Assembly (NCBI GenBank): GCA_037134495.1
Contig: JBAXMC010000001.1
Span: 1 to 58,933 of the forward strand
DNA length: 58,933 bases
Source: Myxococcaceae bacterium
GTDB taxonomy: Bacteria > Myxococcota > UBA727 > JABDBI01
Reading direction: 5' to 3'
Shown here: piece after piece, positions 8,973-54,917 of the stretch
Layout: every line of letters starts with the position of its first letter
Position numbering within the stretch: position 1 is the first letter of the stretch
Translations under genes and position numbers: made by a program
The notes under the pieces: generated by a model
Told to the model about the DNA's origin: nothing
Database searches by the model: none
Seen by the model: the letters and a program-made list of their open reading frames with translations, nothing else

Positions 8973-9013
8973 AGCATGCTAGCTTCTTCTCCTAACTGAA
9001 GGAGATTTTATCT

Positions 9014-9613
9014 ATGTACAGCTTGATTCAAAAACCCGCCCCGGATTTTACCGCTGAAACCGTCATGCCTAATGGCGAATTCACCAAACTCACTCTGTCT
9101 AGTTTCAAAGACAAAAAATATGTCTGCCTGTTCTTTTATCCCCTAGATTTTACGTTTGTTTGTCCGTCTGAGATCTTGTCTTTTTCCCATAAAGCCAAAG
9201 AATTTGAAGACCGAAATACGCAAATTTTGGGCGTTTCTGTCGATTCCAAATTTAGCCATCACGCTTGGAGACAGACAGCGCTCGAGCAAGGCGGTATCGG
9301 ACCTATTAATTTTCCGTTGGTTTCAGATTTAACCAAAGAAATTTCGCGCGATTATGGCGTGCTGGTCGAAGATGCTGTCGCCCTGCGAGGAACTTTCTTG
9401 ATTGATAAATCAGGAATCGTTAGACATGCAACGCTCAATGACTTGCCACTGGGTCGTAATGTCGATGAAACTCTACGCATGATTGATGCTTTGCAGCATA
9501 CTGAACAATATGGCGAAGTGTGCCCTGCTGGTTGGAAAAAAGGCGAAACAGCTATGAAACCGACAGCTGCCGGTGTTGCTTCTTACTTGAAAGAAAACGG
9601 TTCGAAGCTCTGA
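9014..9613 (+). CDS. ahpC: Typical 2-Cys peroxiredoxin (AhpC/Prx1 family)
   Basis: Peroxidatic Cys motif DFTFVCPSE and resolving Cys in GEVCPAGW. GGAG RBS upstream. Confidence 0.92.
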   Translation: MYSLIQKPAPDFTAETVMPNGEFTKLTLSSFKDKKYVCLFFYPLDFTFVCPSEILSFSHKAKEFEDRNTQILGVSVDSKFSHHAWRQTALEQGGIGPINFPLVSDLTKEISRDYGVLVEDAVALRGTFLIDKSGIVRHATLNDLPLGRNVDETLRMIDALQHTEQYGEVCPAGWKKGETAMKPTAAGVASYLKENGSKL

Positions 9614-24533: not shown

Positions 24534-24698
24534 TTTTGGGAATAAAAGAACAGATCACCCCAATTTGAAGCATTCAAGACCCGTTGCGCACAAATTTAAA
24601 TAAATTATTTTTTCGTTTGTTTATTTAGGGGCTTGCCCTGATCTATGAATTCCAGGCTTGCCTAATCCGTTTGGGTACTGCTACATCCTTTGAAACCT

Positions 24699-26117
24699 AT
24701 GGTAGCGATCCGAGAATTTGAAACACAGCCGGCCGATCTTTTTAGCGAAACTTTGCAATCGCTAAAACGTCGTTTGAGTTTGTTTGTTTGGCAGGGCTTT
24801 TTTGAGCCACTGTCTTTTGTATCATTGGAACATGACACACTTTGCATATCAGCTCCCACATCATTCCATAGAGATTGGGTAAGAAATCATTATTTGGTTG
24901 AGCTACAAGAAAGCGCGAGCAAAGCCTTTGGCCGTGCTCTTAAAGTGACTCTGATCGAAAGCGTGCCAGATCACAATATTGAGCGCTCTGCACCCATTTT
25001 GGTTCCTGAGCTTTCCTCACAATCGATCACACCTCTAAAAGCTTTTCAACAGGCACCAGGGGCTCCGCAAGGACCGATCGTTTTAGAATCGGTGGCCCTC
25101 AATCCAGCCAATACTTTCGAGACCTTCGTACCGGGCCCCTGTAACAGCATGGGGTTTGCAGCTTGTAACGCCGTTGCAGAACAACCTGGCGCACAATACA
25201 GCCCCCTCTTTTTGTTTGGGCCTGTTGGGATCGGCAAAACACATTTAATTCAGGCAATTGGCCAATATGCGCTCAGCAAAAATCCCAACACTAAAATTTT
25301 GTACATGAGTGCAGAACAATGGGTGAATGCCTATATCCTAGCCATTCGGGAAAAACGTTTCGATGCCTTTCGCAAAAAGTTTAGAACAGACTGCGATATT
25401 CTACTAATTGACGATATCCAGTTTTTAGCAGGCAAAGATGCCAGCCAAGATGAGTTCTTTCATACTTTCAACAGCCTTCATCAGGCTCACAAGCAAATTG
25501 TTGTAACGTCTGACAAATATCCTCATGAAATTGAAGGTCTCGAAGAAAGACTCCAAACACGTCTGTCTTGGGGTTTAATAGCTGATATTCGGCCTCCTGC
25601 ATTAGATACACGTAGAGCCATCTTAGATAAGAAAGCCGCAAGATACGGTCTTAATTTGCCTGACGATGTTTCTCATTATTTGGCCTCGCAAGCCACCACT
25701 TCTGTTCGAGAACTCGAAGGTGCCCTTCTGCGCCTATCTGCTTTCTTATCTGTCACAAAGTCTGAGGTCACACTGGCGGCCGTCAAAGAATATTTGTCGC
25801 CTGTTTTCAGACGTACAGCGGGTCAACTCTCGGCCGACAAAATTTGCGAACATGTGGCAGCTTATTATGATTTGAAACCACTTGAGCTCAAAGGTCAAAG
25901 TCGTCAACGTCAGGTAGCGCTGGCAAGACAGATCGCTATGGCTCTTTGCAGAAGCATGATGTCATTTAGTTTGCCAGAAATTGGTCGACTCTTTGGGGGT
26001 CGTGATCACACAACGGTACTTTCTTCAATTCGTAAAATTGACGATTTGCGCGAGAGCGACATTGGGCTACAGACAGTTTTGTCTCGTTTAGAGAAAAGTT
26101 TGATTGAATCGTGTTAA
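24699..26117 (+). CDS. dnaA: Chromosomal replication initiator DnaA
   Basis: AAA+ motifs GPVGIGKTHL and LLIDDIQF, sensor TSVRELEGAL, and the domain IV DNA-binding motif DHTTVLSSIRKI. ATG at 24699; the track start at 24690 is TTG. Confidence 0.93.
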   Translation: MVAIREFETQPADLFSETLQSLKRRLSLFVWQGFFEPLSFVSLEHDTLCISAPTSFHRDWVRNHYLVELQESASKAFGRALKVTLIESVPDHNIERSAPILVPELSSQSITPLKAFQQAPGAPQGPIVLESVALNPANTFETFVPGPCNSMGFAACNAVAEQPGAQYSPLFLFGPVGIGKTHLIQAIGQYALSKNPNTKILYMSAEQWVNAYILAIREKRFDAFRKKFRTDCDILLIDDIQFLAGKDASQDEFFHTFNSLHQAHKQIVVTSDKYPHEIEGLEERLQTRLSWGLIADIRPPALDTRRAILDKKAARYGLNLPDDVSHYLASQATTSVRELEGALLRLSAFLSVTKSEVTLAAVKEYLSPVFRRTAGQLSADKICEHVAAYYDLKPLELKGQSRQRQVALARQIAMALCRSMMSFSLPEIGRLFGGRDHTTVLSSIRKIDDLRESDIGLQTVLSRLEKSLIESC

Positions 26118-40928: not shown

Positions 40929-42019
40929 CAGCGTTTGAATTATTACTCGCTCCTATTGGCATCGCGATTACTGCTTTGCTTTTGCTCGCTTCTTTGAAGC
41001 GTTCTCAACAAATTTCTCTTGGAATTTCGATATTAAGTCTTATTGCCTCGTATTGTTTGAGTCACAATTCTTTTGAGCATATGGTCTTAATGTCTTCTGC
41101 TGCTATTTTATTATTTTCAAGCTGCAAAGAAGGCAGCAGCGAAGAGTTTAAGACTTTAATTTTGCTCAGTACTCTAGGTGCTCTCACCTGTGTGAATAGC
41201 CATGATTTGATGAATCTGTTTATAGGAATCGAGCTCTTAACGCTGCCCATCTACGGACTGATCGCCTGGGATGTACACAGTTCTAAAAACATTGCAGCCG
41301 CGATAAAATACTTGGTTTTGGCTGGAGCATCTTCGGCTTTCATGCTTTTGGGTATGGCCTTTCTCTATGCAGAATCAGGTTCCATGCTGTTAGAGCTGAG
41401 CAGTTTAAAAGGCGCCATCTTGCTCTTTGTCGGCATCGGTTTCAAATTAAGTTTGGTACCGTTTCATTTATGGACCGGCGATATTTATGAAGATTCAGCG
41501 CTTCCCGTGACGGCTTTTTTAGCGACTGTTTCCAAAATTGCCCTGGTCGGTGCACTCGTTCATATTGCACCAACCAAACCCATGATTCAGGTGTTGAGTG
41601 TTATTGCCATTTTATCGATGATTTCTGGAAGTTTGCTTACACTCAGACAACAAAACATGAGTAGATTCCTCGGTTACTCATCGATTGCTCACATGGGCTA
41701 TGTACTTGTGGGTTGGCTAGTTGGCGCTGATATAAGCCTGTACATGACTGTCTATGTAACAACGCTCATTGTCACTTTTGCGATTCTTTCTTGGAAACCA
41801 GCCAGCAAAGCCGGTTCGATTATTTTGATTTTGAGCTTATTATCGCTGATGGGCATGCCTGTATTGCCTGTTTTCTGGGGCAAGTATCAAATTCTGACGG
41901 CTGCATCTATGGGACACCACTGGACCTTGTTCGGCGTTTTCATTTTTTCAAGCTTCATCAGTGCCTATGGTTACGCTCGGTTAATTGCAAAAATTTATTT
42001 AAAGGAGTCTGAAGCATGA
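40925..42019 (+). CDS. nuoN: NADH-quinone oxidoreductase subunit N (short, 364 aa)
   Basis: Antiporter-like subunit (IGIELLTLPIY, KLSLVPFHLWTGDIYE), at the expected operon position. ATGA overlaps on both sides. Confidence 0.85.
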   Translation: MTAFELLLAPIGIAITALLLLASLKRSQQISLGISILSLIASYCLSHNSFEHMVLMSSAAILLFSSCKEGSSEEFKTLILLSTLGALTCVNSHDLMNLFIGIELLTLPIYGLIAWDVHSSKNIAAAIKYLVLAGASSAFMLLGMAFLYAESGSMLLELSSLKGAILLFVGIGFKLSLVPFHLWTGDIYEDSALPVTAFLATVSKIALVGALVHIAPTKPMIQVLSVIAILSMISGSLLTLRQQNMSRFLGYSSIAHMGYVLVGWLVGADISLYMTVYVTTLIVTFAILSWKPASKAGSIILILSLLSLMGMPVLPVFWGKYQILTAASMGHHWTLFGVFIFSSFISAYGYARLIAKIYLKESEA

Positions 42020-42900
42020 CACGCGCTTTATGCTTAATTTTAGTTCTGGCCATTGGGTGCTCAAGCAAAAAAGAAATACCAGCCGCTACACCTGCCCCTG
42101 CTCCCAAAGCCTTGATCACTCAATTTCAGAGTGTTTCTTTAAGCGGCCTAACGGCTCAGCAGCAATCTGGTTTTGTAAAGTTGCTGAACGATGAAATCTG
42201 CCCTTGCAGCAGCTGTTCAGAATCTTTTGCAGCTTGCTTACCTAAGTGCAAACCAGCTGTTTTATTGGCTCAGTGGGTCATCGACCGCCTCAAAGAAGGC
42301 GTCCCAATGGAAATGATGGCTCAAGCGTTAAGCCAAGAAATCAATTCTGGCTTTAGTGCAAACCCACAGATTATAGATATTGGTGATTATAGCTCTAAAG
42401 GCTCACCCAAAGCTTCTATGACCCTGGTTGAATTCGCAGATTTTGAGTGTGCTCACTGCAAAATAACGGCAAAGTCTATCGATGAATTTCTGAAAAAACA
42501 CCCTCAGGATATCAAAATTGTCTACAAACATTTTCCCTTAGAGGGGCACCAATTTGCTAAAAATGCCAGCTTGGCAGCTGAAGCGGCAGGCCTACAAGGA
42601 AAATTCTGGCCGATGCACAAGATGTTATTTGAATCTGAAAAACCTCTTGATGAAACGCAAATTCAAGCTTTAGCTAAGAAAGTCGGTTTAAATCTGGGTC
42701 AGTTTAAGAAAGATTTGAGCAGCACCGTAGTCTTAAATAAAGTCGAAAACAGCCTTGCAGAAGGGCAATTACTCGGAATTTCAGGAACTCCTGCCTTGTT
42801 TTTCAATGGCCGGCCTTACTATTTGTCTACAGACATGAAGGGCCTAGAGCTCAGATTGGCTATGGAAAAAGCACGCACAGGGTCAGATTGTACTCATTAG
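42016..42900 (+). CDS. DsbA-family thiol:disulfide oxidoreductase lipoprotein
   Basis: Lipobox LAIGC-S. Thioredoxin-fold active site FADFECAHCK and GTPALFFNG (cis-Pro loop). Translationally coupled to nuoN. Confidence 0.8.
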   Translation: MTRALCLILVLAIGCSSKKEIPAATPAPAPKALITQFQSVSLSGLTAQQQSGFVKLLNDEICPCSSCSESFAACLPKCKPAVLLAQWVIDRLKEGVPMEMMAQALSQEINSGFSANPQIIDIGDYSSKGSPKASMTLVEFADFECAHCKITAKSIDEFLKKHPQDIKIVYKHFPLEGHQFAKNASLAAEAAGLQGKFWPMHKMLFESEKPLDETQIQALAKKVGLNLGQFKKDLSSTVVLNKVENSLAEGQLLGISGTPALFFNGRPYYLSTDMKGLELRLAMEKARTGSDCTH

Positions 42901-42962: not shown

Positions 42963-43076
42963 CTGGTTTCATAGCCCTTTAGGGCGGTATTATTAGAGCC
43001 CCGGGTGTAAACCCGGGGTAACAACGGTGGTTTACCACCTTCCCCTCCCCACCAAAAGCCTCGAAGAGGCGATATT
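42963..43076 (+). repeat. Left ~114-bp multi-hairpin inverted repeat flanking the Y1 transposase
   Basis: It is the reverse complement of 43535..43649, with 6 substitutions and one 1-nt indel by hand alignment. It contains the hairpins CCCCGGGTgtaaACCCGGGG, GGTGGTttACCACC and GCCTCgaaGAGGC. Confidence 0.9.
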
Positions 43077-43527
43077 AACCCCATAGATAGGTGGGATTAT
43101 ATTCGATTTGATTCTGTTTTAGAAAAATCAGATACTCTTCTTCAAATGAATTTTTTCTGTGATGTTCTTTTTGGTTTCTAACATAATGACGAACACGTTC
43201 AATTTGGGAGGCGCTGACAGTAAATGCGCCATATCCATTTTGCCATGAAAAGCTGCCTTGATAGTTTTTGCGTTCGTTTAACCATTTTGAAGAATTTGCT
43301 TTGATAACGCGAACCATCTCTGAAAGATTGATTCCTGCCCGAACCTTGAGAATAAGATGAAGATGGTTTTCTATGCCACCAATCCCTAAAAGAAGTTCCT
43401 GTTTATTTCGAATGATCCCAGCGATATAATCGTATAGTTCTGTCTGAATTTCTTCTTTAATCGTTGGAGCCCTGTTCTTCGTGCTGAACACCACATGATA
43501 GATGAGATTTGTTAACGTTGACGTCAT
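43075..43527 (-). CDS. tnpA: IS200/IS605-family Y1 (HUH) transposase, REP-associated (RayT-like)
   Basis: LIYHVVFSTKNR, the HUH motif HLHLIL, and SSKW...FSWQNGYGAFTVS...YVRNQKEHH. About 150 aa. Confidence 0.88.
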   Translation of the reverse strand: MTSTLTNLIYHVVFSTKNRAPTIKEEIQTELYDYIAGIIRNKQELLLGIGGIENHLHLILKVRAGINLSEMVRVIKANSSKWLNERKNYQGSFSWQNGYGAFTVSASQIERVRHYVRNQKEHHRKNSFEEEYLIFLKQNQIEYNPTYLWG

Positions 43528-43534
43528 ATTGCTA

Positions 43535-43649
43535 AATATCGCCCCTGCGGGGCTTTTGGCGGGGAGGGGGAAGGTGGTAAACCACCGTTGTTACCCCGGG
43601 TTTACACCCGAGGCTCTAATAATACCGCCCTACAGGGCTATGAAACCAG
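43535..43649 (-). repeat. Right ~115-bp multi-hairpin inverted repeat flanking the Y1 transposase
   Basis: It is the reverse complement of 42963..43076. The terminal hairpin is GCCCCgcaGGGGC, a compensatory change relative to GCCTCgaaGAGGC in the left copy. Confidence 0.9.
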
Positions 43650-43743: not shown

Positions 43744-44661
43744 ATGCCAAATATGAAGAAGATATTCTACATCATACAGCTGCTTTTACTGACTGTGTCT
43801 TGCTCTGGAAGCATTGACTCCGAAAACCTGCATCCAACAAGCAAACCGACAAAAATTTGGCTTAAAGCTGAAAGTTATCTGACTCATCTATCTGGAAAAA
43901 CAGAGAGATATAAAAGTTCTCTTGGGCGCCAAATAGAGCTGGGAGGGGTAGATGGAGATAATGAGTCAATCCCGGTGTTAGAGACAGAAATCACCCAAGA
44001 ACTTTTGCCTTATGTCGACATAAAGGGAAGCGACTGGTTTCTCAGAATTGAACAAAAAAGCTATCTGCTGGCGGATGCAGCCTTGCGTTCTAGAATGCAG
44101 GATAAAATTTTTATTAATTTCGGAGCTGTTAAAGGTTATCATCCGGTCCTTGATTTAGATAAAAGCGAATTGCAAAATGAGCCTATTTTGGCGCGTTTGC
44201 ATCCGAATTTATCTGCCTTTGGACCTGATGCTCCAATCGAGCAATTATTGTCAAGTTTTGGTCGTCAGTGGGCAAAGAAAAATTCAGAAGAAGAAGGGCC
44301 TAACTGTTTTTTTAGTGCGATTGCCTCTCTCAATGAAGGTTGGAACACACCTCGTTTTATGTCTGAACCCGAACTGATGTGCCATTTGAAGCGTTCTTTT
44401 ATTGAAATAGATGAATTAACTCAGTTCGGTGATGCATTAGTCTTGTTTGGAGAAGATGGAACGCCTGAACATGCAGCAACTTATGTTGGTCAGCTCTCAA
44501 CCGGAGAAAAAATCATCTTCACGAAAAATGGAAGAAGACCAAGTTTTTATCTTTTTATGGATTTAGACACAATTACCGGCAATGAGCATTCTTACAAAGG
44601 ATCAAAACCGAAGTTCTTTCGCTCAATCAAGACTTCTTTGCCATCAGATTGCAGTAACTAA
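43744..44661 (+). CDS. Lipoprotein with a C-terminal papain-fold (NlpC/P60-like) Cys/His signature
   Basis: Lipobox LLTVSC-S. Candidate nucleophile in GPNCFFSAIASL. FGDALVLFGEDGTPEHAATYVG...IFTKNG resembles the NlpC/P60 His strand. An alternative ATG lies at 43753. Confidence 0.5.
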   Translation: MPNMKKIFYIIQLLLLTVSCSGSIDSENLHPTSKPTKIWLKAESYLTHLSGKTERYKSSLGRQIELGGVDGDNESIPVLETEITQELLPYVDIKGSDWFLRIEQKSYLLADAALRSRMQDKIFINFGAVKGYHPVLDLDKSELQNEPILARLHPNLSAFGPDAPIEQLLSSFGRQWAKKNSEEEGPNCFFSAIASLNEGWNTPRFMSEPELMCHLKRSFIEIDELTQFGDALVLFGEDGTPEHAATYVGQLSTGEKIIFTKNGRRPSFYLFMDLDTITGNEHSYKGSKPKFFRSIKTSLPSDCSN

Positions 44662-44736: not shown

Positions 44737-46548
44737 GTGAAAGCTTTATTTTTATTATTAATATTTCTAATTGGTTGCGATAACGTTGGATTCAATCGCT
44801 CTGACAAATCGCCTTCAAAACCTTCTGCAGCAATGCAAGCCTTTGCAGATTTAGTCAATCGCGCCATTGGCCTTGCAGACACTGAATTATCTGAAAATTT
44901 TTCGCCTGAATCTATTCTCTTGATCGAACAAATTTACACAGACAGATTTGCTGCTTTTATCACGGAACTTAAGAAAGACACACAGACACAAAGCAACTTG
45001 ATTAAGCTCAAAAATGAGTTGATGGGTTTCGAAATAAGCAATCCTGGGCTCAAACCCATAGAGCAGGCGGCTTTCTTTGAAAAAATAGCTAACAATCCAA
45101 AAGCGCTCAAAATACTCATTGAAATTCGCAATGATCTTTACGGGCCAGATGGAAAATTACTCAAAAGAATTCTCTGGGGAGCTGCTCATGATCCCATCAA
45201 AAAACAAGCTCTTATCTCGGGTCAAATTTTAGGACTCTGTAAAACTCTGCATTGTGCTATTTCCAAACCAGAAAACATAAAGCCCATTTTTTCAGATCAC
45301 CCTTATGCTCTTGATCTAATCGTGTTCAGTCAAAGCAAGCTGAAAAAAGACTTAGATGCTTTCTCTGGACTAACAGGCGAAGAGGGTCATCTCATAGAAG
45401 ACGAGTTTATTTGGACAGGACTCAGACTAATTGCCCTCACAGATTATGTTTCTCTTGCTTGGGCGCATGAATATATTCGGGATTTGACCGAAGAAAAACT
45501 CAAGGAGCGTTTATTAGCAGCAGCACAATACCTCAAAGCTCCGAAACAGGGAAAAATAAACCAGCTTGCTGCTGACCTCATGCCTGAATTGCGTGAGTTT
45601 GCTCGCACCCTAATAGAGCCTTTAACGAGCAAAGATCTCCAAGACCTATTAAACAAGTTAAGTGAATACTTGACCCAGTACTCTAAAAACAACCCAGTAT
45701 TAAGCTCACCCATACTCAGCCCAAAACCTTCTATTGAATCCCCCATTAGAACACATATCCGCAGACTCGATGATTTTGCTCAAGAACTTCTTCGAGATCC
45801 CATCGCCGAACAAAATCTCATTGAAGTCAAAGATGCCTTCTTAAATTCTGCCCCTAAGAGACATGCCTGGTCCGGAGTAGAGTGGGCAAGTTTTATTGAT
45901 ACGATTGCTGCCCACCCAGAAACCATTTCAATCTTGCTCAGAATCAGAGACAGTCTCTATGGTCCAGACGGCCAATTATTAAAGAAAATTCTGCTGTCTG
46001 CAGCTCATGACAATACCGAACGTGACGCTTTTTTAGCAGGCCAAGCCTACAACAAATGTGTCAAAGAACACAGCATTTATCAATGCCTGCCGACAGGCCT
46101 TTATCAAGAAGCCTTCATGCACTACGCATCGATGAAAAATTCCGATAAAATACTCTTCAGTAAAACGAGACTAAAGGCCGATTTAGATACTTTCTTGGAA
46201 ATCACTCAGAAAGATGGAGAATTGGGAGCGGGTGAAGAGAACAAGCTTGTCTGGGCCTGCATTAAATTACTCCCTATTTTAAGCTACTCTTCTCTTTCTT
46301 GGCTTCATAATGACATCAAAAAAATAGAGGCTAGAACTCTCAAAAATCACCTGCTCTCTCTAAGTAAATACTTAAGAGACTCGAAACAAGGGCAAGTCGA
46401 AGCCTTGCTGTCTGAATTTGGTCCACAAATACATGAAACAGGGCATAGCTTGTTTGCTGCTTTTACGGGTAAATCACTGAAAGATTTAACCCCCGAAGAA
46501 CTGCATGGCTTACTAGAACAACTGGATGCTTTTTTGGGACCGCATTGA
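44737..46548 (+). CDS. Lipoprotein made of two tandem family-A modules (603 aa), function unknown
   Basis: GTG start and lipobox FLIGC-D. The motif LxIRxxLYGPDGxLLKxIL..AAHD...G....C occurs twice (KILIEIRNDLYGPDGKLLKRILWGAAHD and ILLRIRDSLYGPDGQLLKKILLSAAHD). Confidence 0.65.
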   Translation: MKALFLLLIFLIGCDNVGFNRSDKSPSKPSAAMQAFADLVNRAIGLADTELSENFSPESILLIEQIYTDRFAAFITELKKDTQTQSNLIKLKNELMGFEISNPGLKPIEQAAFFEKIANNPKALKILIEIRNDLYGPDGKLLKRILWGAAHDPIKKQALISGQILGLCKTLHCAISKPENIKPIFSDHPYALDLIVFSQSKLKKDLDAFSGLTGEEGHLIEDEFIWTGLRLIALTDYVSLAWAHEYIRDLTEEKLKERLLAAAQYLKAPKQGKINQLAADLMPELREFARTLIEPLTSKDLQDLLNKLSEYLTQYSKNNPVLSSPILSPKPSIESPIRTHIRRLDDFAQELLRDPIAEQNLIEVKDAFLNSAPKRHAWSGVEWASFIDTIAAHPETISILLRIRDSLYGPDGQLLKKILLSAAHDNTERDAFLAGQAYNKCVKEHSIYQCLPTGLYQEAFMHYASMKNSDKILFSKTRLKADLDTFLEITQKDGELGAGEENKLVWACIKLLPILSYSSLSWLHNDIKKIEARTLKNHLLSLSKYLRDSKQGQVEALLSEFGPQIHETGHSLFAAFTGKSLKDLTPEELHGLLEQLDAFLGPH

Positions 46549-46579
46549 CAATCCAGAGTGACATAGTATCGTTTAGGCA

Positions 46580-47371
46580 GTGAAATTATACAGTAAATTT
46601 CTTGCTCTTTCACTGATTTGTTTATCTTGTTTAGGACAAAATAAACCAATCAGCTTAACTGAGCGACAAAAAAACCTCGTCCGTTGGGCCTACAGAGCGA
46701 TTAACGAGGTCATGAAAACAACTCCATTGCCGGCTGTGAGCCCCCAGGGACAACCTCCTGATTGGAAGTGGATACCTGTTTTGCTTGAGGACTTAGCAAG
46801 CGATAGTGCCATGCTTGAGCTTATCATCAACACAAAAAATGACATCTATAAACCATGTCATTTTTATCAGCCATGCTATTTTCAAAAATCAATTGGTGAC
46901 TTGATCCAAGAAATTGCAGTCAAAGCAAGAAAAGATAAAGATTACAGAATTGCCTTGCTTAAAGGCTACCAATGGGAAGACTGCAGCAAAGCATATTTCG
47001 GGGCTTTAGATCCTAGAAGCTACTTTCAATGTGGTATGCCACCCCTAGACTGGAGCTTAATAAAACTCAAATTCTCTGATTTTAAAAGCGATTTCGACAG
47101 TCTTTTAGATAATTTATTTAAAAAAGGCCTGCCAAAGAAAAAAGCTTCAGAGCTTACAGTCGAAGAGATGGATCAACATTTGCTCTTCATAGAGCTTTTC
47201 GTAAAGCTCGCTCCACGGTTACAAGAACTTATCTCATTGCCCTGTGAAATCTATTTAGAAAAATCTCTTCAGGAAGTTGACGTAGATGAACTTAGAAGCG
47301 TTTTAGAAGAACTCAATCGGCTTCTAAAAGGAACCCTCAAGGCTGCAGAGCCAAGAAACCAAAGGACTTAG
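46580..47371 (+). CDS. Exported family-A paralogue (263 aa), function unknown
   Basis: GTG start and a signal-like N-terminus. It is homologous to 48422..49228 and to the modules of 44737..46548. The C-terminus is SLQEVDVDELRSVLEELNRLL...AEPRNQRT. Confidence 0.6.
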   Translation: MKLYSKFLALSLICLSCLGQNKPISLTERQKNLVRWAYRAINEVMKTTPLPAVSPQGQPPDWKWIPVLLEDLASDSAMLELIINTKNDIYKPCHFYQPCYFQKSIGDLIQEIAVKARKDKDYRIALLKGYQWEDCSKAYFGALDPRSYFQCGMPPLDWSLIKLKFSDFKSDFDSLLDNLFKKGLPKKKASELTVEEMDQHLLFIELFVKLAPRLQELISLPCEIYLEKSLQEVDVDELRSVLEELNRLLKGTLKAAEPRNQRT

Positions 47372-47374
47372 ATC

Positions 47375-48385
47375 ATGAAATTATTTATTTTAAATATCAT
47401 ATTAGTGGCTCTCGCAACAGGCTGTGGCGACACAAAATTCAGTAAACTTGAACCAAGACCAAATCAAAACATTGAGGATTCTGTCATTGACCATCTCAAA
47501 AATAACGCTAAAAACAACGCTCAGTGTCACGATGAAATGACAACTCTGATCGAGAATAATAAGTCGGAGCTCAAAAACTTCGTTGCTCAGCTTAAAATGC
47601 TCCCCTCAAAGACAACACCTGGGTTGCCTGATAGCAATGAAGACTACTTCAAACAGCAGCTTAAGAAAATCCTCAGCCCTGACTTTAAAGATGCTCTCAT
47701 AGAACTCTCTTCGACTCTGGAGGCAATCGCAAACGATGACGATCTGATCAACAGCCTTAAAACTGTTCATAGCGAGATTATGCTCGAATCTGGTGACAGA
47801 TTTTCAGAACTCTTGATGGCTGTTACTCAAAGCCCATACGCAGGAACAGCAATTCTAGAAGCAGTCAAAAAACACTTAGAGTGTGACACTTTTGACCCAG
47901 CCAATGCCCTTGAAGCTTCTTTGAATCTTCTCTCAGAAACAAAAGAGATCGTTCTGGGTAACCTGGGTTATTTGTTAGGAAATACAAACCTTTTTGAAGA
48001 CGGCAAAAAAATCATAAAAGGCGTTGAGCTGATTAAAAATGCAAAAAAAATTCAGCAATTTCTCCCTGTAACAACAGGAGACAACTTGAAATTCATTTGT
48101 GAGCTAGAAAACCTGAAAACTTATCAAAATCATATTAAACTTTTGAACACTCTTTTAACAAAGAATTCTAAAGACCCTAAGGCTCCAAGGCCACTGAGAG
48201 CCCTTTTGAACATGTCGCTCAAACTCTTCACCATGAACAAAGAAACCAATAATTGCTTAGGCCGCTCATTTGATGACCTCAAAAAAGAAGACCTCAAGGC
48301 TAATCTATTGATGATTGCAGACTACTTGGTAAGTGAGAAATCTGGGCTGCTCAGCATCATCAATGCCATGAAACCGCGCACGTAG
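47375..48385 (+). CDS. Family-B lipoprotein (336 aa), function unknown
   Basis: Lipobox ALATGC-G. It starts 3 nt after the previous stop. It is a full-length paralogue of 49232..50242 with four conserved Cys, and ends ...GLLSIINAMKPRT. Confidence 0.7.
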   Translation: MKLFILNIILVALATGCGDTKFSKLEPRPNQNIEDSVIDHLKNNAKNNAQCHDEMTTLIENNKSELKNFVAQLKMLPSKTTPGLPDSNEDYFKQQLKKILSPDFKDALIELSSTLEAIANDDDLINSLKTVHSEIMLESGDRFSELLMAVTQSPYAGTAILEAVKKHLECDTFDPANALEASLNLLSETKEIVLGNLGYLLGNTNLFEDGKKIIKGVELIKNAKKIQQFLPVTTGDNLKFICELENLKTYQNHIKLLNTLLTKNSKDPKAPRPLRALLNMSLKLFTMNKETNNCLGRSFDDLKKEDLKANLLMIADYLVSEKSGLLSIINAMKPRT

Positions 48386-48421
48386 GAATCAGACCCAATC
48401 TTGCTCTGTTGACCGACTGTA

Positions 48422-49228
48422 ATGAGAAACCTCATAGTTGGTCTGTTTTTGATAACACTTTGGCAACCGCAGTTATACGCAGCAGAGCTTTTTCGAAACC
48501 TCTCCTCTAACTCCTCTCCAGAATCTGGAGAGGGATTTAGGGAGAGGTCTCCGAGTTTCGGTCTATTAAGTCAGGCAGATCAAGCTCTGCTTAAATCTGT
48601 CTTGAAGATTACTTTTTCAGCAACTCTTCCCATTGTATCCAACATACCCAATCAAACCCTCTCGCTTGATAAGGCAACCAATTCGCTCAGAAAAATAGCT
48701 GCCGACTCAGATACACTTCAAAAAATCTTACTCGTCCGTGATGGCTTCTATACAGTAGAAGGCGATCTTCTCAGGGCTATTTTGGTCACTGCAGCCAGCA
48801 GTCAACTTGAGAGAGATGCTTTTATTGCAGGATTACAATACGAAAAATGTAAAAAATGGTTCTGGGAATGTAAGCTCCCTCCTATCAATTCGGCGAAACT
48901 GCTCTTCAAATTCTTCTCAAAACTTAGAAACGACATCGATGATCTCGAAGAAAAACTGACCCAAATAGGTGTACTAGAAAATAACGACCTCTCAAATTTT
49001 GACCCCAGAAGTCTCGATCAATATGAGCCTTATTTTCAGCTCTTTGTTCAGCTAGAGCCTCTTATCGGTCAACTAAACTCATTTTTATTCAATTATTACG
49101 CTCAGAAGTCTCTGCGCGATTTAAATCCAAAAGAACTTCGAGAACTGTTAGAGAAACTAATTTCGTTTTTAAGCGATAACGAAAACGGAGCTCTCGGATT
49201 CATTCGAAAAGCTCAACCTCGGAGCTAA
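48422..49228 (+). CDS. Exported family-A paralogue (268 aa), function unknown
   Basis: Signal peptide. LQKILLVRDGFYTVEGDLLRAILVTAASSQLERDAFIAGLQYEKC. Ends ...GALGFIRKAQPRS. Confidence 0.7.
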   Translation: MRNLIVGLFLITLWQPQLYAAELFRNLSSNSSPESGEGFRERSPSFGLLSQADQALLKSVLKITFSATLPIVSNIPNQTLSLDKATNSLRKIAADSDTLQKILLVRDGFYTVEGDLLRAILVTAASSQLERDAFIAGLQYEKCKKWFWECKLPPINSAKLLFKFFSKLRNDIDDLEEKLTQIGVLENNDLSNFDPRSLDQYEPYFQLFVQLEPLIGQLNSFLFNYYAQKSLRDLNPKELRELLEKLISFLSDNENGALGFIRKAQPRS

Positions 49229-49231
49229 CCC

Positions 49232-50242
49232 ATGAAACGAATTGCAGGTCTTTTAATTTTACTCACCGGCTGTAATAATATTAACCAAACAGAGATAAAA
49301 TCTAAAACATACTTAGAAGAAGTCGTTACAAAAAGTCTCGAAGGCTTTGCTGCCAATTCTTCTGTTTGCAGGGAAGAAAAAGTTGCACTGGTTCGAAAAG
49401 ACAAAGCTCTGATTCAAAATTTGGTGGCTCAGGTTAAGAACTTAGCGAACAGTAGTCCCATCGCAACCCTCAACATCAAATCTTTTAGCCAGTATTTAGA
49501 TCAAAGTACCGCCGATCAAATCGACATGATGTTTCAAATCCTCACAAGCGATGGCTTTAGAGTTGTGGTTGGACAAACAGCCGATCTTCTCAGAACTGTC
49601 TCAACCAATGATGCTATTCTAGATAATCTAACAAGCGTTCGAGACGATTTGCTTTCAGAACCAGGAGACAGAATATCCGAAATTATCACTTCTTTGGCTT
49701 CAGATAGAGCCAAACAAGATGCTTTGCTGGGAGCTGTTAAAAGCGCTACGTGCAATAACCCCTCTGAAACAGATTTAGTAGGTCTCTTGTTTACGCCTCA
49801 AGTTTTATGGGAACTGGGAGCCAATGGAACTTATTTGATCGCAAGCCCATTAGCACAACATGCCAGGCCACTGCTCTTGGCTGTACAGCAACTTGCAATC
49901 CCCGATGAACTTGCACAATTCGTAGCCATGGTTAAAGACATGCTCCCTAAACAAGACATCTGTTTAATCGATAACCTAGATGCTTATCAGCCACATATAG
50001 CCCTGGCCTTAAGTCTCTTCAAAGCAAGCGATACGGCAAATGAACCTAGGCCCTTGAGAAGTTTGGTAAATGTACTATTCAAGCTTTATACGATGGAAGA
50101 CTCTAATCAATGTTCCGGGACATCTTTTGATGATCTCACAAAACAAAGCATCCAAGACGCACTCACAACAACTGCCAATTTTTTATCTGATGAACAACAT
50201 GGCGTTGTTGGAGTTTTGAAAAAAATGAAACCGCGCAAATAG
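49232..50242 (+). CDS. Family-B lipoprotein (336 aa), function unknown
   Basis: Lipobox LLTGC-N. It starts 3 nt after the previous stop. It is a paralogue of 47375..48385 (GDRISEI, EPRPLRSLVNVLFKLYTM, CSGTSFDDL) and ends ...GVVGVLKKMKPRK. Confidence 0.7.
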   Translation: MKRIAGLLILLTGCNNINQTEIKSKTYLEEVVTKSLEGFAANSSVCREEKVALVRKDKALIQNLVAQVKNLANSSPIATLNIKSFSQYLDQSTADQIDMMFQILTSDGFRVVVGQTADLLRTVSTNDAILDNLTSVRDDLLSEPGDRISEIITSLASDRAKQDALLGAVKSATCNNPSETDLVGLLFTPQVLWELGANGTYLIASPLAQHARPLLLAVQQLAIPDELAQFVAMVKDMLPKQDICLIDNLDAYQPHIALALSLFKASDTANEPRPLRSLVNVLFKLYTMEDSNQCSGTSFDDLTKQSIQDALTTTANFLSDEQHGVVGVLKKMKPRK

Positions 50243-50255
50243 AAAGGTCTTCACC

Positions 50256-51452
50256 ATGATAAAAATTTATTCTGTTTCATTTTTTTTGGCTGTGTTTAGC
50301 CTACAAGCTGGACCGATTGAAGATACATTCGGCGCAGGTGCTCGAAATAAAGCCATGGGCGGAGCCGGTATTAATATTGCCGAAGATTACACGGCAACTT
50401 TCTATAACCCTTCTTTGCTGGCTCTGTGCCGAGGAAGCCGCTTATCAATGGGCTATGACCTGATCCACACGAGCCTCAACGACCCAAATCCAGAGGCGGA
50501 GCAACTCGGCACTTATCAAGCCCTCAATCTTGGATTTTGCTTAAAGCCCTTGAACCATGTGGGTATCGGTGTCTACACCAATTTTAGCTTAGGCCCCATT
50601 GAATTTACTGCCAATACTTTAAACACAACACCGACATTTATTATGTATGCAGGCGATTTAAAAGCTTTCTCGATGATGATGGGTGGTGGATATGCGCCCA
50701 TTAAGCAACTAACCATCGGTGCAGCCATGAGCATGGCAACTGGAGTGACGCTTGGCACGGATTTAAAAGGTTCTCCGGGCAGTAAAACCCCCGTAGAAGC
50801 TAGCTTCCCAGCACAGATTTCTCCAATTGTTGGCGCCATTGCAGGTGTTACGGCAACGCCCTTAGATGACTGGAAGCTAAGTCTCGTCTATCGCTCTTCA
50901 ACCTATGGGAAAATTAACATTAAAGTTGATGCAAACCTCTATGACCAATCTCTCAACACAACTTATATTGGAGGCTACTTATCTTACTCTCCGCACCAGA
51001 TTGCATTTGGAAGTTCTTATCTTTTGAATGATAAGTTCCTGTTTACTGGAGATTTGACCTATTATTTTTGGTCAGCCTACCCCGGACCTTTCTTAAAAAT
51101 TGAGACCGATCCCAATTCTGTTTTGTTTAGTGGAATCACTGTTGCTCCGACAGAACCTCCTAATTTCTCGAATATTCTTGTTCCCAGAGCAGGCTTTGAA
51201 TATACAGTTTGGGACAAGTTAAAAGTCAGAGCAGGTTATTCTTTCAGAAAAACGCCCGCCCCCATTCCAGCAGGTACAGCTAAATTATTAGATGCCAGTG
51301 CCCACCGCGTTTCAGCAGGTGTTGGCTATGAGTTTCAATTGTATCAAAATATATTTTTAATTACAGATGCTTTCTTTAGTGCTGATATTTTGATGAATGG
51401 TAGGGGTAGCGCTATTAACACAGGCCTGTTAATAGGCGCTGAGTATGACTGA
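50256..51452 (+). CDS. Outer-membrane beta-barrel of the FadL/OmpP1/TodX hydrophobic-compound transporter family
   Basis: Signal peptide and a FadL-like N-terminus (GAGARNKAMGGAGINIAEDYTATFYNPSLLA). The rest is alternating beta-strand sequence (RAGYSFRKTP, SAGVGYEF). Confidence 0.7.
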   Translation: MIKIYSVSFFLAVFSLQAGPIEDTFGAGARNKAMGGAGINIAEDYTATFYNPSLLALCRGSRLSMGYDLIHTSLNDPNPEAEQLGTYQALNLGFCLKPLNHVGIGVYTNFSLGPIEFTANTLNTTPTFIMYAGDLKAFSMMMGGGYAPIKQLTIGAAMSMATGVTLGTDLKGSPGSKTPVEASFPAQISPIVGAIAGVTATPLDDWKLSLVYRSSTYGKINIKVDANLYDQSLNTTYIGGYLSYSPHQIAFGSSYLLNDKFLFTGDLTYYFWSAYPGPFLKIETDPNSVLFSGITVAPTEPPNFSNILVPRAGFEYTVWDKLKVRAGYSFRKTPAPIPAGTAKLLDASAHRVSAGVGYEFQLYQNIFLITDAFFSADILMNGRGSAINTGLLIGAEYD

Positions 51453-52068
51453 CATTGTTGCAATAGATGGGCCCGCAGGTTCGGGCAAAAGCTCTGTAGC
51501 GAAAACCTTAGCCAAAGAACTGGGGTTTTTGCATGTAGATACCGGGGCAATTTATAGGACTCTAGCTCATGCAGCTATCGAAGCTGGCATCTCGCTAAGT
51601 GACCCAGAAGCGGTTTCTCAGCTGGCAGCTTCTGTCGTTCAAATTAATACTTCTTCTGAAATCAGAACCGAAAAAATTGGCGCTGCGGCTTCACATATTA
51701 GTCAGTACCCGGAAGTCAGAGCTAATCTATTAGATCTTCAAAGACGCTTCGGGCTTTCATCTAAAACAGGCGCTGTCTTAGAAGGCCGCGATATTGGAAC
51801 GGTTGTTTTCCCTGATGCGAAATTTAAATTTTTCTTAACTGCGTCTCCAGAGCAACGGGCCAAGCGCAGACTTTTAGAGCTTGAGCAACGCGGTGAATCC
51901 GCAAATTATGAAGAAGTTCTAAGAAAGCTCAAAGAGCGGGATGACCGAGATAAAAACAGAGCCATCGCGCCCCTCATACCTGCCCAAGATGCCATTTTCA
52001 TCGACACGAGCAACAGCTCTTTGGAACAGGTGGTGGCTCAAATCATTCAGCTGATTAAAGATGCTTGA
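51445..52068 (+). CDS. cmk: Cytidylate kinase
   Basis: IAIDGPAGSGKSSVAK, HVDTGAIYR, EGRDIGTVVFPDA, RAKRR. It overlaps the barrel gene by 8 nt. Confidence 0.92.
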   Translation: MTDIVAIDGPAGSGKSSVAKTLAKELGFLHVDTGAIYRTLAHAAIEAGISLSDPEAVSQLAASVVQINTSSEIRTEKIGAAASHISQYPEVRANLLDLQRRFGLSSKTGAVLEGRDIGTVVFPDAKFKFFLTASPEQRAKRRLLELEQRGESANYEEVLRKLKERDDRDKNRAIAPLIPAQDAIFIDTSNSSLEQVVAQIIQLIKDA

Positions 52069-52447
52069 TCTCTGTATCGTCCTTGTCACCTGCTGTAGCT
52101 TTCTTACATGCATCCGAAAGATTCTTTGTGAGTTTGTTGCAAGTGTTTAAAGCTTCGTAACCCACGTTGTCAGCATTGAGCACGCATTCAGTGAACTGTA
52201 CACCTGCGAGTAAATCATCTTGTGAGCAGTATTCTTGCATACTTTCAATTTGATCTTGCTTTGGAACGGGAACCCTAACATTCTGTATGCCAGCTTGAAT
52301 ATACATTGCAGCCACTTTTTCTAGATTATCTACAATTTTATCCACGAGAGCTTTTTTAGAAAGTTTCTCGGGTTGAGCACCAGAACCAGCATTTTCACCA
52401 CAACCAATAAAACATAAAAGAAGTGTTAAGCAAATTAGTGTTTTCAT
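52055..52447 (-). CDS. Hypothetical lipoprotein (130 aa)
   Basis: Lipobox CFIGC-G and four further Cys residues. No motif recognised. Confidence 0.5.
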   Translation of the reverse strand: MKTLICLTLLLCFIGCGENAGSGAQPEKLSKKALVDKIVDNLEKVAAMYIQAGIQNVRVPVPKQDQIESMQEYCSQDDLLAGVQFTECVLNADNVGYEALNTCNKLTKNLSDACKKATAGDKDDTEIKHL

Positions 52448-52484: not shown

Positions 52485-53126
52485 TCAGGTAAATCGTGCT
52501 TCAGTCTTTACCTTAACTTCTTCTAAGCTTACACCTGGCATCAATTCTAAAAGCTTTAAATCCTTACCGCGCTCGACTCCAAACACACATAAATCTGTAA
52601 CGATCATATCGACACAAGCTTTTCCAGTCAGCGGCAACGTGCACTCACGCAAAATTTTTGCTTCTCCATTTTTATTCGTATGCTCCATGGCGACAATAAC
52701 TCTCGGTGTCCCTGTCACTAAATCCATAGCGCCACCCATACCTTTAACCATTTTTCCAGGAATCATCCAATTCGCTATATCGCCTGTTTCAGAAACCTGC
52801 ATCGCTCCTAAAACCGTCAAATCAATATGACCACCTCGAATCATCGCAAAAGAATCTGCTGACGAAAAATAAGATGCACCTAAAATCTCTGTCACGGTTT
52901 GCTTGCCAGCGTTTACCAAATCAGGATCCACTTGATCTTCATCTGGGAAAGGCCCCATGCCCAATAAACCATTTTCACTTTGAAAAATAACTTCGATACC
53001 TTCGGGGACATAGTTGGCTACCAGTGTTGGCATTCCGATACCCAAATTCACCACATAACCATCTTTGAGTTCGCGAGCGATGCGTTTAGCAATTTCGTAC
53101 CGTGCGTTGTTCGATCCATTTGTCAT
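52485..53126 (-). CDS. scoB: 3-oxoacid CoA-transferase subunit B
   Basis: [21 protein letters not shown] (catalytic Glu motif), GAMDLV. Confidence 0.9.
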
Positions 53127-53781
53127 AGTGTTCGCCTATAATAATCCGCTGTACATAAACGCCGGGGACATGAATTTGATCGGGCTCAAGCTCTCCGAGT
53201 TTTACAAACTCTTCAACTTCAACAATCGTTATTTTTGCAGCTGCACACATGACAGAGTTAAAATTTCTGGCCGTCTTTCTAAAAACCAAATTCCCAAAAG
53301 GGTCCGCTTTATAAGCTTTGATAATCGCAAAGTCAGCTTTCAAAGCTTTCTCAAGTAAATACTCTCGCCCGTCAAAAACCCGAATCTCTTTGTTTTTGGC
53401 AACCTCAGTTCCAACTCCAGTGGGTGTATAAAATGCAGGAATACCTGCGCCGCCAGCTCGAATACGCTCGGCTAGAGTTCCTTGGGGTACCAACTCGACT
53501 TCGATTTCATGATTTAATAATTGCCGTTCAAATTCAGAATTTTCACCGACATAGCTTGCTGTAATTTTTTTGATTTGTTTGTTTTTAAGCAAAACCCCGA
53601 GACCCAGTTCTGTCGTACCGCAGTTATTACTAATCAAACTAATTTCTCGAATACCTTTGTCAGCAATCGCTTTAATTAAATTTTCTGGGTTACCACATAA
53701 ACCAAAACCGCCAGCCATTAACACTGAGCCGTCTTTCAAATCAGAAACAGCTTCCGCAGCCGATTTAAAAAGCTTGTTCAC
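53086..53781 (-). CDS. scoA: 3-oxoacid CoA-transferase subunit A
   Basis: [43 protein letters not shown]. Confidence 0.9.
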
Positions 53782-54917
53782 CCGAACAACTCACGCGTAA
53801 TGATCACACGTTGTATCTGGCTTGTACCCTCGTAAATTTGCAAAATCTTCGCATCTCTCATGAGTTTCTCGACTGGATACTCTTTATTAAAACCGTTGCC
53901 ACCAAAAACTTGAACAGCATCGGTTGTTACACGCATGGCCATGTCTGCACAGAAGCGCTTTGCATGTGCAGCTTGAAGCGTATTGCTCTGCCCTTTGTCT
54001 AGTCTAAGCGCAGCATTCCAAGCCAAAAACCTTCCTGCTTCTATATCTGTCGCCATGTCAGCAATCATGAAACCGATTCCCTGGTGATGCCAGAGTGGCT
54101 TTCCGAAACTTTTGCGTGCTGAAGCATATGCAACAGCATGTTCCATGGCTGCACGTGCAACACCAACACCAGCAATGCCTACCAGTGGCCTTGTATGGTC
54201 GAATGCTTTCATCGCAATCATAAAGCCGTCACCTTCACGACCCAATAAATTTTCAGCAGGAATTTCAACATCTTCAAATGTCACAGAGCGTGTATCAGAA
54301 GCGCACTGGCCCATATTGTGCTCTTTCTTACCAACACTCACGCCAGGCAAATCTCTGGGAACGACAAAAGCACTCATGCCCTTGTGAGCAGCATTCTTGT
54401 CTGTTTTAGCCAAAACAAAATACCAACGTGCATGTCCTGCGCCGGTAATCCACATTTTTTGGCCATTTAGAATATATTTGTCGCCTTTTTTAACAGCACT
54501 GGTTTGAATAGCTGCCACGTCAGACCCAGCGCCCGCTTCGGTCACAGCATAAGCACAAATATGGTGTTCATGAGAAAACGGTGAGAGCCATTTTTTCTTT
54601 TGTTCTTCACTTCCGGCAATAATCACAGGCATTTGGCCTAATGAGTTTGCAGTAATCGCTGTTGTGACGCCCATACAGCCCCAGCTCAGCTCTTCTTCGA
54701 TCAAACAGCCATCCATCGCACCTAGCTCAAGTCCGCCGCAGCTCGCCGGGAGATGTACATTGAGGAGACCTAAATCAAACGCTTTCTTCAAGATATCTTC
54801 AGGCCATTCACCTGTTTCATCATGATAGCTGGCCTTTGGCCTGATTTCTTTCTCGGCAAAATCATGGGCAAGAGACTTAAGTTGCTTCTGGTCGTCGCTC
54901 AGATCAAAGTTAATCAT
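53778..54917 (-). CDS. Acyl-CoA dehydrogenase (short/medium-chain type)
   Basis: [19 protein letters not shown], and the C-terminal motif [18 protein letters not shown]. About 379 aa. Confidence 0.9.

Follow-up and report, generated by a model that had tools for sequence, protein, structure and literature searches.

Why should a row of exported helical proteins be encoded directly in front of a FadL-type outer-membrane barrel, and are the two connected in function? This question is raised by a 58,933-nucleotide (nt) stretch of the genome of a Myxococcaceae bacterium (GenBank assembly GCA_037134495.1, contig JBAXMC010000001.1, positions 1 to 58,933), referred to here as the window, in which six closely spaced genes on one strand encode five helical proteins of two families, A and B, followed by the barrel. 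Our analysis supports the view that the five proteins form one divergent, uncharacterised, exported and all-helical superfamily, and they probably represent a lineage-restricted, heteromeric set of envelope partners of the FadL-type channel. The array and the gene that follows it are arranged as listed below, with lengths in amino acids (aa) and matches to hidden Markov models (HMMs) in brackets. Coordinates, gaps and junctions of the open reading frames (ORFs) were taken directly from the window sequence.

44737 to 46548, plus strand: 603-aa lipoprotein AA, with two tandem A-type helical domains (lipobox LIGC; A-family HMM E 3e-120)
46580 to 47371, plus strand: A protein of pair 1, 263 aa, all-helical and exported (A-family HMM E 2e-75)
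47375 to 48385, plus strand: B lipoprotein of pair 1, 336 aa, with four further cysteines (lipobox ATGC; B-family HMM E 6e-134)
48422 to 49228, plus strand: A protein of pair 2, 268 aa, all-alpha in the AlphaFold2 model, with a signal peptide and the cysteine pair C143/C150
49232 to 50242, plus strand: B lipoprotein of pair 2, 336 aa, with invariant cysteines 46, 174, 244 and 294 (lipobox LTGC)
50256 to 51452, plus strand: outer-membrane beta-barrel of the FadL/TodX/OmpP1 family, 398 aa (Pfam Toluene_X)
51445 to 52068, plus strand: cmk (cytidylate kinase), a housekeeping gene that overlaps the barrel gene by 8 nt

The window proteins bear the locus tags WCK49_00230-00240. Six same-strand ORFs separated by 31, 3, 36, 3 and 13 nt, the last of them overlapping cmk by 8 nt, had been described in an earlier reading of this DNA (the initial annotation), and this layout was reproduced exactly. 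A search for terminator-like intergenic sites within the array found none. The cmk gene is probably co-transcribed with the barrel gene and lies outside the envelope module. In both pairs of the window, A and B share a reading frame, with nothing but a stop and one sense codon at the junction (TAG ATC ATG at 47369-47377 and TAA CCC ATG at 49226-49234). An A-B fusion produced by stop-codon read-through was considered and rejected, because the in-frame layout is not conserved (the gaps in relatives are -4, -1, +1, +2 and +17 nt) and because B carries a lipoprotein signal of its own.

The relationship among the five proteins is far above chance in BLASTP comparisons. The two halves of the 603-aa protein share 33% identity (E 1e-41), the A proteins at 46580 and 48422 share 28% (E 9e-18), and the latter also matches the C-terminal half of the 603-aa protein (E 3e-19). 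The two B proteins of the window are 29% identical over 340 aa (E 4e-38). Families A and B are connected through the similarity between the A protein at 48422 and the B protein at 49232, which amounts to 23% over 220 aa (E 6e-10). Both families also end in a shared C-terminal module, which appears in alignments as KSLxDLxxxELxxxLExLxxFL...G.....KPR-end. The paralogy of the five proteins had been proposed in the initial annotation together with motifs for A and B and a common C-terminal module, and all of these could be seen again in our alignments A1, A2 and A3.

Export signals, likewise predicted earlier for all five proteins, were judged by pattern inspection alone, and on that basis they are present throughout: three proteins carry lipoboxes at residues 11-17 (the 603-aa protein and both B proteins), and both window A proteins have signal-peptide-like N-termini in which a canonical lipobox is absent. 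No transmembrane-like segments were found in the mature A and B proteins. The lipid cysteine of B is invariant across nine B sequences. The claim that both families carry conserved cysteines held only in part. The four cysteines of B other than the lipid cysteine are invariant in nine of nine sequences, whereas the cysteine pair of A is not universal: the A proteins from three related loci introduced below (L004, L009 and L010) have EKG..WFPGWD instead, as do proteins P0016, P0017, P0019, P0024 and P0027.

By every test that was run, A and B appear to be an orphan family whose predicted fold is unrepresented in the PDB, and the earlier statement that no characterised family could be assigned to them thus stands. 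Against Pfam and NCBIfam, the five helical proteins returned nothing better than E 0.02, and no match was found in the PDB by sequence or profile. A word-index search of a 5.8-billion-sequence protein database yielded only eight homologs of the second B protein (49232-50242), and the six-sequence A/B alignment A1, used as query against the same 5.8 billion sequences, yielded only nine proteins, two of them the window's own. A further word-index search, with a 30-sequence alignment as query and a capped number of candidates, brought up no members beyond those already in hand. An exhaustive HMMER profile search of 1.84 billion 50%-identity representatives returned only 29 proteins at E <=0.001, and the family motifs were present in all 22 of those whose sequences were inspected. 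Scans of GTDB genomes with an A-family pattern and of metagenomes with a B-family pattern gave no confirmed matches, although barrel patterns did yield loci. The AlphaFold2 model of the A protein of pair 2, which is of good quality (predicted local distance difference test, pLDDT, 81.3; predicted template modelling score, pTM, 0.75), is all-alpha, with 11 helices, one of them 33 residues long. The model of the second B protein is of moderate quality (pLDDT 66) and is also all-alpha, with about 19 helices. Foldseek comparisons of the A and B models with the PDB, and of the A model with BFVD, gave best E values of 0.2-1.2 and template modelling (TM) scores of <=0.21. Fold assignments to bestrophin, alpha-pore-forming toxins and Borrelia PF12 that emerged from Foldseek were rejected as noise (E >0.2, TM <=0.21).

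The barrel is more readily placed. It matches Pfam Toluene_X (PF03349) with 44.7 bits against a gathering cut-off of 29.7, and a profile built from four barrel orthologs finds TbuX (E 1.3e-7), TodX (1e-6), a Pseudomonas FadL homolog (2e-4) and E. coli FadL (0.08). At its N-terminus the barrel carries the hatch motif GAGARNKAMGGAG...YNPSLL, and the hatch segment GAGARNKAMGGAGINIAEDYTATFYNPSLLA aligns to TbuX residues 8-40 and is invariant in four orthologs. The predicted signal-peptide cleavage site is followed after only 7 residues by the hatch motif, a length canonical for FadL. The score above the cut-off and the hatch aligned to TbuX bear out the original assignment to the FadL family. Other family models were not reached: the barrel scores 43.1 bits with PorV/PorQ (NF033709; cut-off 90), 16.9 bits with PorV of the type IX secretion system, T9SS (NF033710; cut-off 250), 42.4 bits over residues 27-317 with BamG (NF053685; cut-off 250), whose extended N-terminal tail it lacks, and 26.9 bits with AupA (NF041571; cut-off 840). 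Since the PorV/PorQ, BamG and AupA cut-offs were all failed, the barrel is, as judged from these profiles, a divergent member of the FadL family that belongs to no named subfamily. Its orthologs in six loci are 62-71% identical. Outer-membrane barrels mostly end in an aromatic residue; the C-terminus of this one, ...LLIGAEYD (window 51438-51452), is invariant in the orthologs (alignment A6).

We then compared gene order among related loci, which were obtained from look-ups of encoding contigs and from barrel-pattern scans, with genes classed by HMMs built from our own alignments. Taxonomic labels are those of the depositors, and all comparative loci come from one clade and are not phylogenetically independent. 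In the following list, DsbA denotes a DsbA-like lipoprotein gene, lipo denotes a lipobox, and brackets otherwise set off other genes or a reverse orientation.

Window: nuoN-DsbA-(IS200, 305-aa lipoprotein)-AA-A-B-A-B-barrel-cmk
L003: nuoN-DsbA-AA-A-B-(AAA_14, reverse)-A-B-barrel
L008: A(lipo)-A(lipo)-B-A-B-barrel-cmk
L001: nuoN-DsbA-A(lipo)-A-B-barrel-cmk; L002 matches in the B-barrel-cmk part
L009 (a GTDB genome, 'uncultured Myxococcaceae'): nuoN-DsbA-A-B-A-B-barrel-cmk
L010 ('Deltaproteobacteria' NORP243): (ATPase_2)-A-B-A-B-barrel-cmk
L011: A-B-barrel
L013 (also L012 and L014): (FabH, DnaJ, reverse)-A-B-barrel
L004-L007: nuoN-DsbA-A-B, then MiaB (reverse), TPR, TonB and ExbB/D; barrel absent

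The most constant element of these loci is the A-B pair. In the nine lineages, all 14 pairs have A before B, spaced by -4 to +17 nt, and B was never found there without an A immediately upstream. This constant order and tight spacing suggest a pattern typical of translationally coupled subunits of one complex. All B proteins carry a lipobox, while most A proteins that adjoin a B do not, so that A would usually be a soluble signal-peptide protein and B always a lipoprotein. Orthologs of the A protein of pair 2 occur in every related locus. The ortholog of AA in L003 is 643 aa long, and L001 and L008 carry single-domain lipoprotein versions of it. Copy number varies from one to two A-B pairs among lineages, with zero, one or two extra A domains. 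The A-B pair had been described as a repeat unit that was duplicated long ago, and the comparison agrees: both pairs are already present in the most divergent relatives, L009 and L010, which argues that the duplication is old.

The barrel follows this module closely. In eight of nine lineages it lies directly after the last B with a gap of 8-19 nt, and the arrangement holds down to 62% barrel identity, so that the A-B-barrel synteny expected in related genomes does recur. The linkage is still kept in L009 and L010, whose barrel and cmk are the most divergent (62-67% identity). In the L013 lineage, FabH and DnaJ replace the nuo genes and DsbA upstream, and the A-B-barrel trio is retained.

The explanation that we tentatively prefer, as a possibility and not as a settled assignment, is that A-B modules are envelope partners of the FadL-type channel and would most likely hand over or capture hydrophobic cargo. 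A hydrophobic cargo is favoured because canonical FadL barrels conduct hydrophobic molecules and because dedicated partners of such barrels, namely VolA and AupB, are documented. A role in ligand handling, proposed in the initial annotation as well, is plausible from the gene neighbourhood, which is what it draws on since neither a homolog nor a fold match is available for A and B. In such a system, translational coupling would allow A and B to be produced in equal amounts, and the two may pair up as a heterodimer that is stabilised by disulfides and held at the outer membrane through the lipid anchor of B. The DsbA-like lipoprotein that is usually encoded directly upstream is a candidate oxidase for their cysteine pairs and would probably oxidise both A and B. 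The dimers could then act as accessory subunits of the channel that bind or hand over the hydrophobic cargo it conducts, feeding the channel if they are located on the cell surface or receiving from it if they are located on the periplasmic side. It is possible that two diverged A-B pairs, together with AA, give one channel different ligand or partner specificities.

Several observations weigh against this explanation. A and B gave no homology or fold match at all. Synteny is weak functional evidence here, because all the loci belong to a single narrow clade whose gene order is conserved over >20 kb anyway. L004-L007 keep A-B with nuo and DsbA, and the barrel does not follow. The barrel is bound more tightly to cmk, through an 8-nt overlap kept in six of six loci that show both genes, than it is to B. 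In addition, several A-B pairs per barrel do not fit a simple 1:1 lid, and the cysteine pair of A has been lost in several lineages.

Some of these points lend weight to the alternative that there is no functional tie to the barrel at all, and that A-B is an independent, lineage-specific structural or chaperone-like complex of the periplasm or outer membrane, perhaps a client of DsbA. Its genes would then only happen to lie between the nuo-dsbA operon and a housekeeping unit of barrel and cmk, in a clade whose gene order is highly conserved. The arrangement in L004-L007, with MiaB, TPR and TonB/ExbBD downstream in place of the barrel, and the invariant overlap of barrel and cmk are what this alternative would lead one to expect; flanking genes that have no evident connection in function with the array (CoA transferase, acyl-CoA dehydrogenase and DUF4360) are equally syntenic in L001, L002 and the window, and DsbA lies upstream of the array in five of the seven lineages whose upstream side is visible. 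However, the L013 lineage dropped the nuo-DsbA context and yet retained A-B-barrel, and the gap between B and barrel stays at 8-19 nt in the eight lineages despite their divergence. The barrel-less state also looks derived, because L004 is intermediate by its NuoN and DsbA identity (60% and 64%), between the close relatives (73-75%) and L009 (46% and 61%). We consider an independent complex to be somewhat unlikely, though still a serious rival.

Evolutionary rates bear on a further alternative. Orthologous A and B proteins are 34-38% identical where barrel and cmk keep 62-67%, and their nonsynonymous substitution rate (dN) is 1.3-2 times that of neighbouring genes, by which measure A and B evolve fastest of all in the block. 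The ratio of dN to the synonymous rate (dS) is <0.21 everywhere, with dS saturated (>1.5 or undefined). The use of dN/dS as a test of diversifying selection was rejected on account of this saturation, and it can only be stated that dN is much smaller than dS, which indicates that the array genes are real and under purifying selection. A mirror-tree analysis of co-evolution from neighbour-joining trees of A and B was also rejected, as the trees were too crude; one of their inputs, the C-terminal half of AA from L003, was out of frame and has to be disregarded.

Exposed proteins tend to evolve faster than their neighbours, as A and B do, and it could be proposed that the helical proteins are surface coat or canopy lipoprotein complexes that are anchored on the barrel as a platform and serve adhesion, nutrient capture or protection. 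Paralog expansion with a copy number that varies among lineages is consistent with such a coat, and the FadL-family protein BamG indeed anchors a surface lipoprotein, BamH (PMC12611786). The weak similarity of the window barrel to BamG (42 bits) and PorV/PorQ (43 bits) also rivals that to Toluene_X and TbuX/TodX. However, these scores fall far under the cut-offs for BamG (250) and PorV (90), the N-terminal tail of the barrel is as long as is canonical for FadL, without the extension that BamG has, most A proteins are unlipidated, and evidence for an export route for surface lipoproteins is lacking in this organism. A dN/dS well below 1 also speaks against this alternative, though dS is saturated. 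Taken together, a surface canopy seems unlikely, though it too is a serious rival. Passage of the helical proteins through the plugged lumen of the barrel, an option raised in the initial annotation, ranks lowest of all the explanations, and we know of no precedent for the translocation of a folded protein through a plugged FadL lumen.

Within the channel-partner explanation, a bolder version would hold that the A-B heterodimers are an unseen class of disulfide-bonded helical carriers of hydrophobic molecules that dock on a FadL-type channel, with pairs differing in cargo, and that the cell thereby gains a protein-mediated path from the channel to other parts of the envelope and back. We regard this version as doubtful. 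To our knowledge, it is not understood how hydrophobic molecules move on once FadL-type channels have released them laterally. Such carriers, if they exist, could be the way in which substrates of FadL get out of the outer membrane.

The region upstream of the array contains three further genes, of which only the first has counterparts at this place in several relatives.

42016 to 42900, plus strand: DsbA-like thioredoxin-fold lipoprotein (Pfam DSBA 78.5 bits)
43075 to 43527, minus strand: IS200-type Y1 transposase gene (Y1_Tnp profiles)
43744 to 44661: 305-aa lipoprotein (lipobox TVSC)

The DsbA-like protein exceeds the Pfam DSBA cut-off of 25.6 bits and has the active site CAHC. Its gene overlaps nuoN by 4 nt and, given this overlap, appears to close the complex I operon. 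In the window and in its counterparts in L001 (7297-8169) and L003 (2928-3803), a conserved N-terminal cysteine-rich segment, CPCSSCSESFAACLPxCKP, precedes the thioredoxin domain. In NCBIfam, the protein resembles only the Rcas_1661 thioredoxin-like lipoprotein family, and only weakly. The gene lies immediately before the array in L001, L003, L004 and L009, and not in L010 or L013.

The Y1 transposase upstream of the array, recognised earlier, exceeds the cut-offs of both Y1_Tnp profiles (Pfam 92.4 bits against 23, NCBIfam 67.9 against 55). Its gene is bracketed by inverted repeats (42963-43649) of 95 nt with 93% complementarity, plus a second pair of 35 nt, and no further copies of this inverted repeat were found in the window. 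True IS200/IS605 elements have no terminal inverted repeats, and the long repeats here therefore give the appearance of a repetitive extragenic palindrome (REP)-associated, RAYT-like arrangement. The IS200/RAYT gene and the 305-aa lipoprotein are absent at this position in L001, L003, L004 and L009, which indicates a later insertion in the lineage of the window. From this absence in relatives, the 305-aa lipoprotein would seem to have come together with, or next to, the transposase unit. It had been labelled NlpC/P60-like, and this label found no backing, as neither Pfam (searched to E 1 with the whole protein and to E 10 with its C-terminal half), NCBIfam nor the PDB (to E 10) gave a match. 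A Cys...His pattern (GPNCFFSA ... PEHAATYVG) can be seen in its sequence.

Does the array itself belong to a mobile or accessory island that arrived with the Y1 transposase? The IS200-like gene with its 95-nt inverted repeats lies only 1.2 kb upstream, and insertions of AAA_14 and ATPase_2 genes interrupt or adjoin the array in L003 and L010. However, the array has the same place in the chromosomes of relatives that lack the transposase and the 305-aa lipoprotein there, within the conserved synteny nuoLMN-dsbA-(array)-barrel-cmk-CoA transferase. The guanine-plus-cytosine (GC) content, 0.40-0.41 in the array, falls within the range for the window (0.40-0.48), and the family is absent outside the clade among 1.84 billion representatives. 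The array is surrounded by dnaA and core genes. The window, which makes up an entire contig of a metagenome-assembled genome and also bears PEGA-domain Ser/Thr kinases, aromatic amino-acid genes and a complete nuo operon, is core chromosome. An island origin is highly improbable and is refuted in practice by the comparative loci; the description of this stretch as accessory in the initial annotation must accordingly be dropped, since what is specific to the window is the insertion of the transposase and the 305-aa lipoprotein.

The AAA_14 gene in L003 lies inside the array (7827-9053, minus strand), and the ATPase_2-type gene in L010 lies just upstream of it (291-1703). Three independent insertions around the array, in the window, L003 and L010, suggest a hotspot at which insertions are tolerated. 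In the window, dnaA is found about 20 kb upstream of the array (24690-26117) and is followed by an 824-aa ORF. Cumulative GC skew, computed in 2-kb steps, falls almost steadily along the window, and as there is no turning point at dnaA, a replication origin is not evident in the window.

Downstream of the array, an orphan 130-aa lipoprotein gene (LCFIGC; 52055-52447, minus strand) is convergent with cmk, shares 14 nt with the 3' end of that gene and has no match in Pfam. Beyond it, two CoA-transferase subunits and an acyl-CoA dehydrogenase are encoded at 52485-54917 on the minus strand, and the same genes occupy the same place in L001 and L002. These genes possibly place fatty-acid or ketone-body catabolism near a FadL-type channel, and their position may be a coincidence.

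How, then, does the array compare with known systems? The closest relatives of the barrel itself are FadL, TodX and TbuX (PF03349), with which it shares a score above the family cut-off, a hatch motif that ends NP(A/S)xL and a mature size of 380 aa that fits a 14-stranded barrel. Unlike them, the window barrel is very divergent, ends in GAEYD and is preceded by helical (lipo)protein genes; canonical fadL, todX and tbuX loci have no such genes upstream. In Vibrio cholerae, the gene for the lipoprotein VolA is co-transcribed with a fadL homolog at a distance of 16-23 bp, and VolA, encoded downstream of fadL, is a lipase that prepares cargo for the channel (PMC3656444). By contrast, A and B are encoded upstream, are helical and non-enzymatic-looking, occur as several paralogous pairs, and have no sequence or fold similarity to VolA. 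Alkane uptake in Marinobacter relies on the FadL-like protein AupA and AupB, a partner of unknown fold, which share an operon, bind each other and are often multicopy (PMC5989066). AupB, however, is an inner-membrane protein, A and B were unrelated to it in our searches, and the window barrel scores 27 bits with the AupA model against a cut-off of 840.

FadL-family barrels can also bind lipoproteins or cargo without conducting small molecules. T9SS cargo docks on PorV. In the BAM complex (beta-barrel assembly machinery) of Bacteroidota, the FadL-family barrel BamG docks the lipoprotein BamH (PMC12611786). The window barrel resembles both in that it matches their models weakly, but it has no extended N-terminal tail and no BAM or T9SS genes nearby, and neither BamH nor BamM is homologous to A or B. 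A further analogy is offered by SusC/SusD, in which a barrel is paired with a helical-lipoprotein lid and the pairs have undergone paralogous expansion. Here too, an all-helical lipoprotein is encoded beside an outer-membrane barrel and expanded into paralogous sets. The two cases differ in several ways: SusC is a TonB-dependent 22-strand barrel and FadL a 14-strand barrel, several A-B pairs accompany one barrel, the phylum is another one, and A and B gave no match to SusD/RagB in Pfam.

The examples of AupA/AupB, VolA and BamG show that dedicated partners can be recruited by FadL-type barrels. Since the family is restricted to a small clade of uncultured bacteria, its wider significance stays limited unless a mechanism emerges. 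If the A-B pairs do bind the barrel or its cargo, they would represent a new architecture by which hydrophobic molecules are taken up across the outer membrane; otherwise, they would still constitute a clean clade-specific envelope family with a fold absent from the PDB. In its new fold, its pairs of a soluble protein with a lipoprotein, its several pairs per barrel and its association with DsbA, the array is distinct from the known FadL-partner systems.

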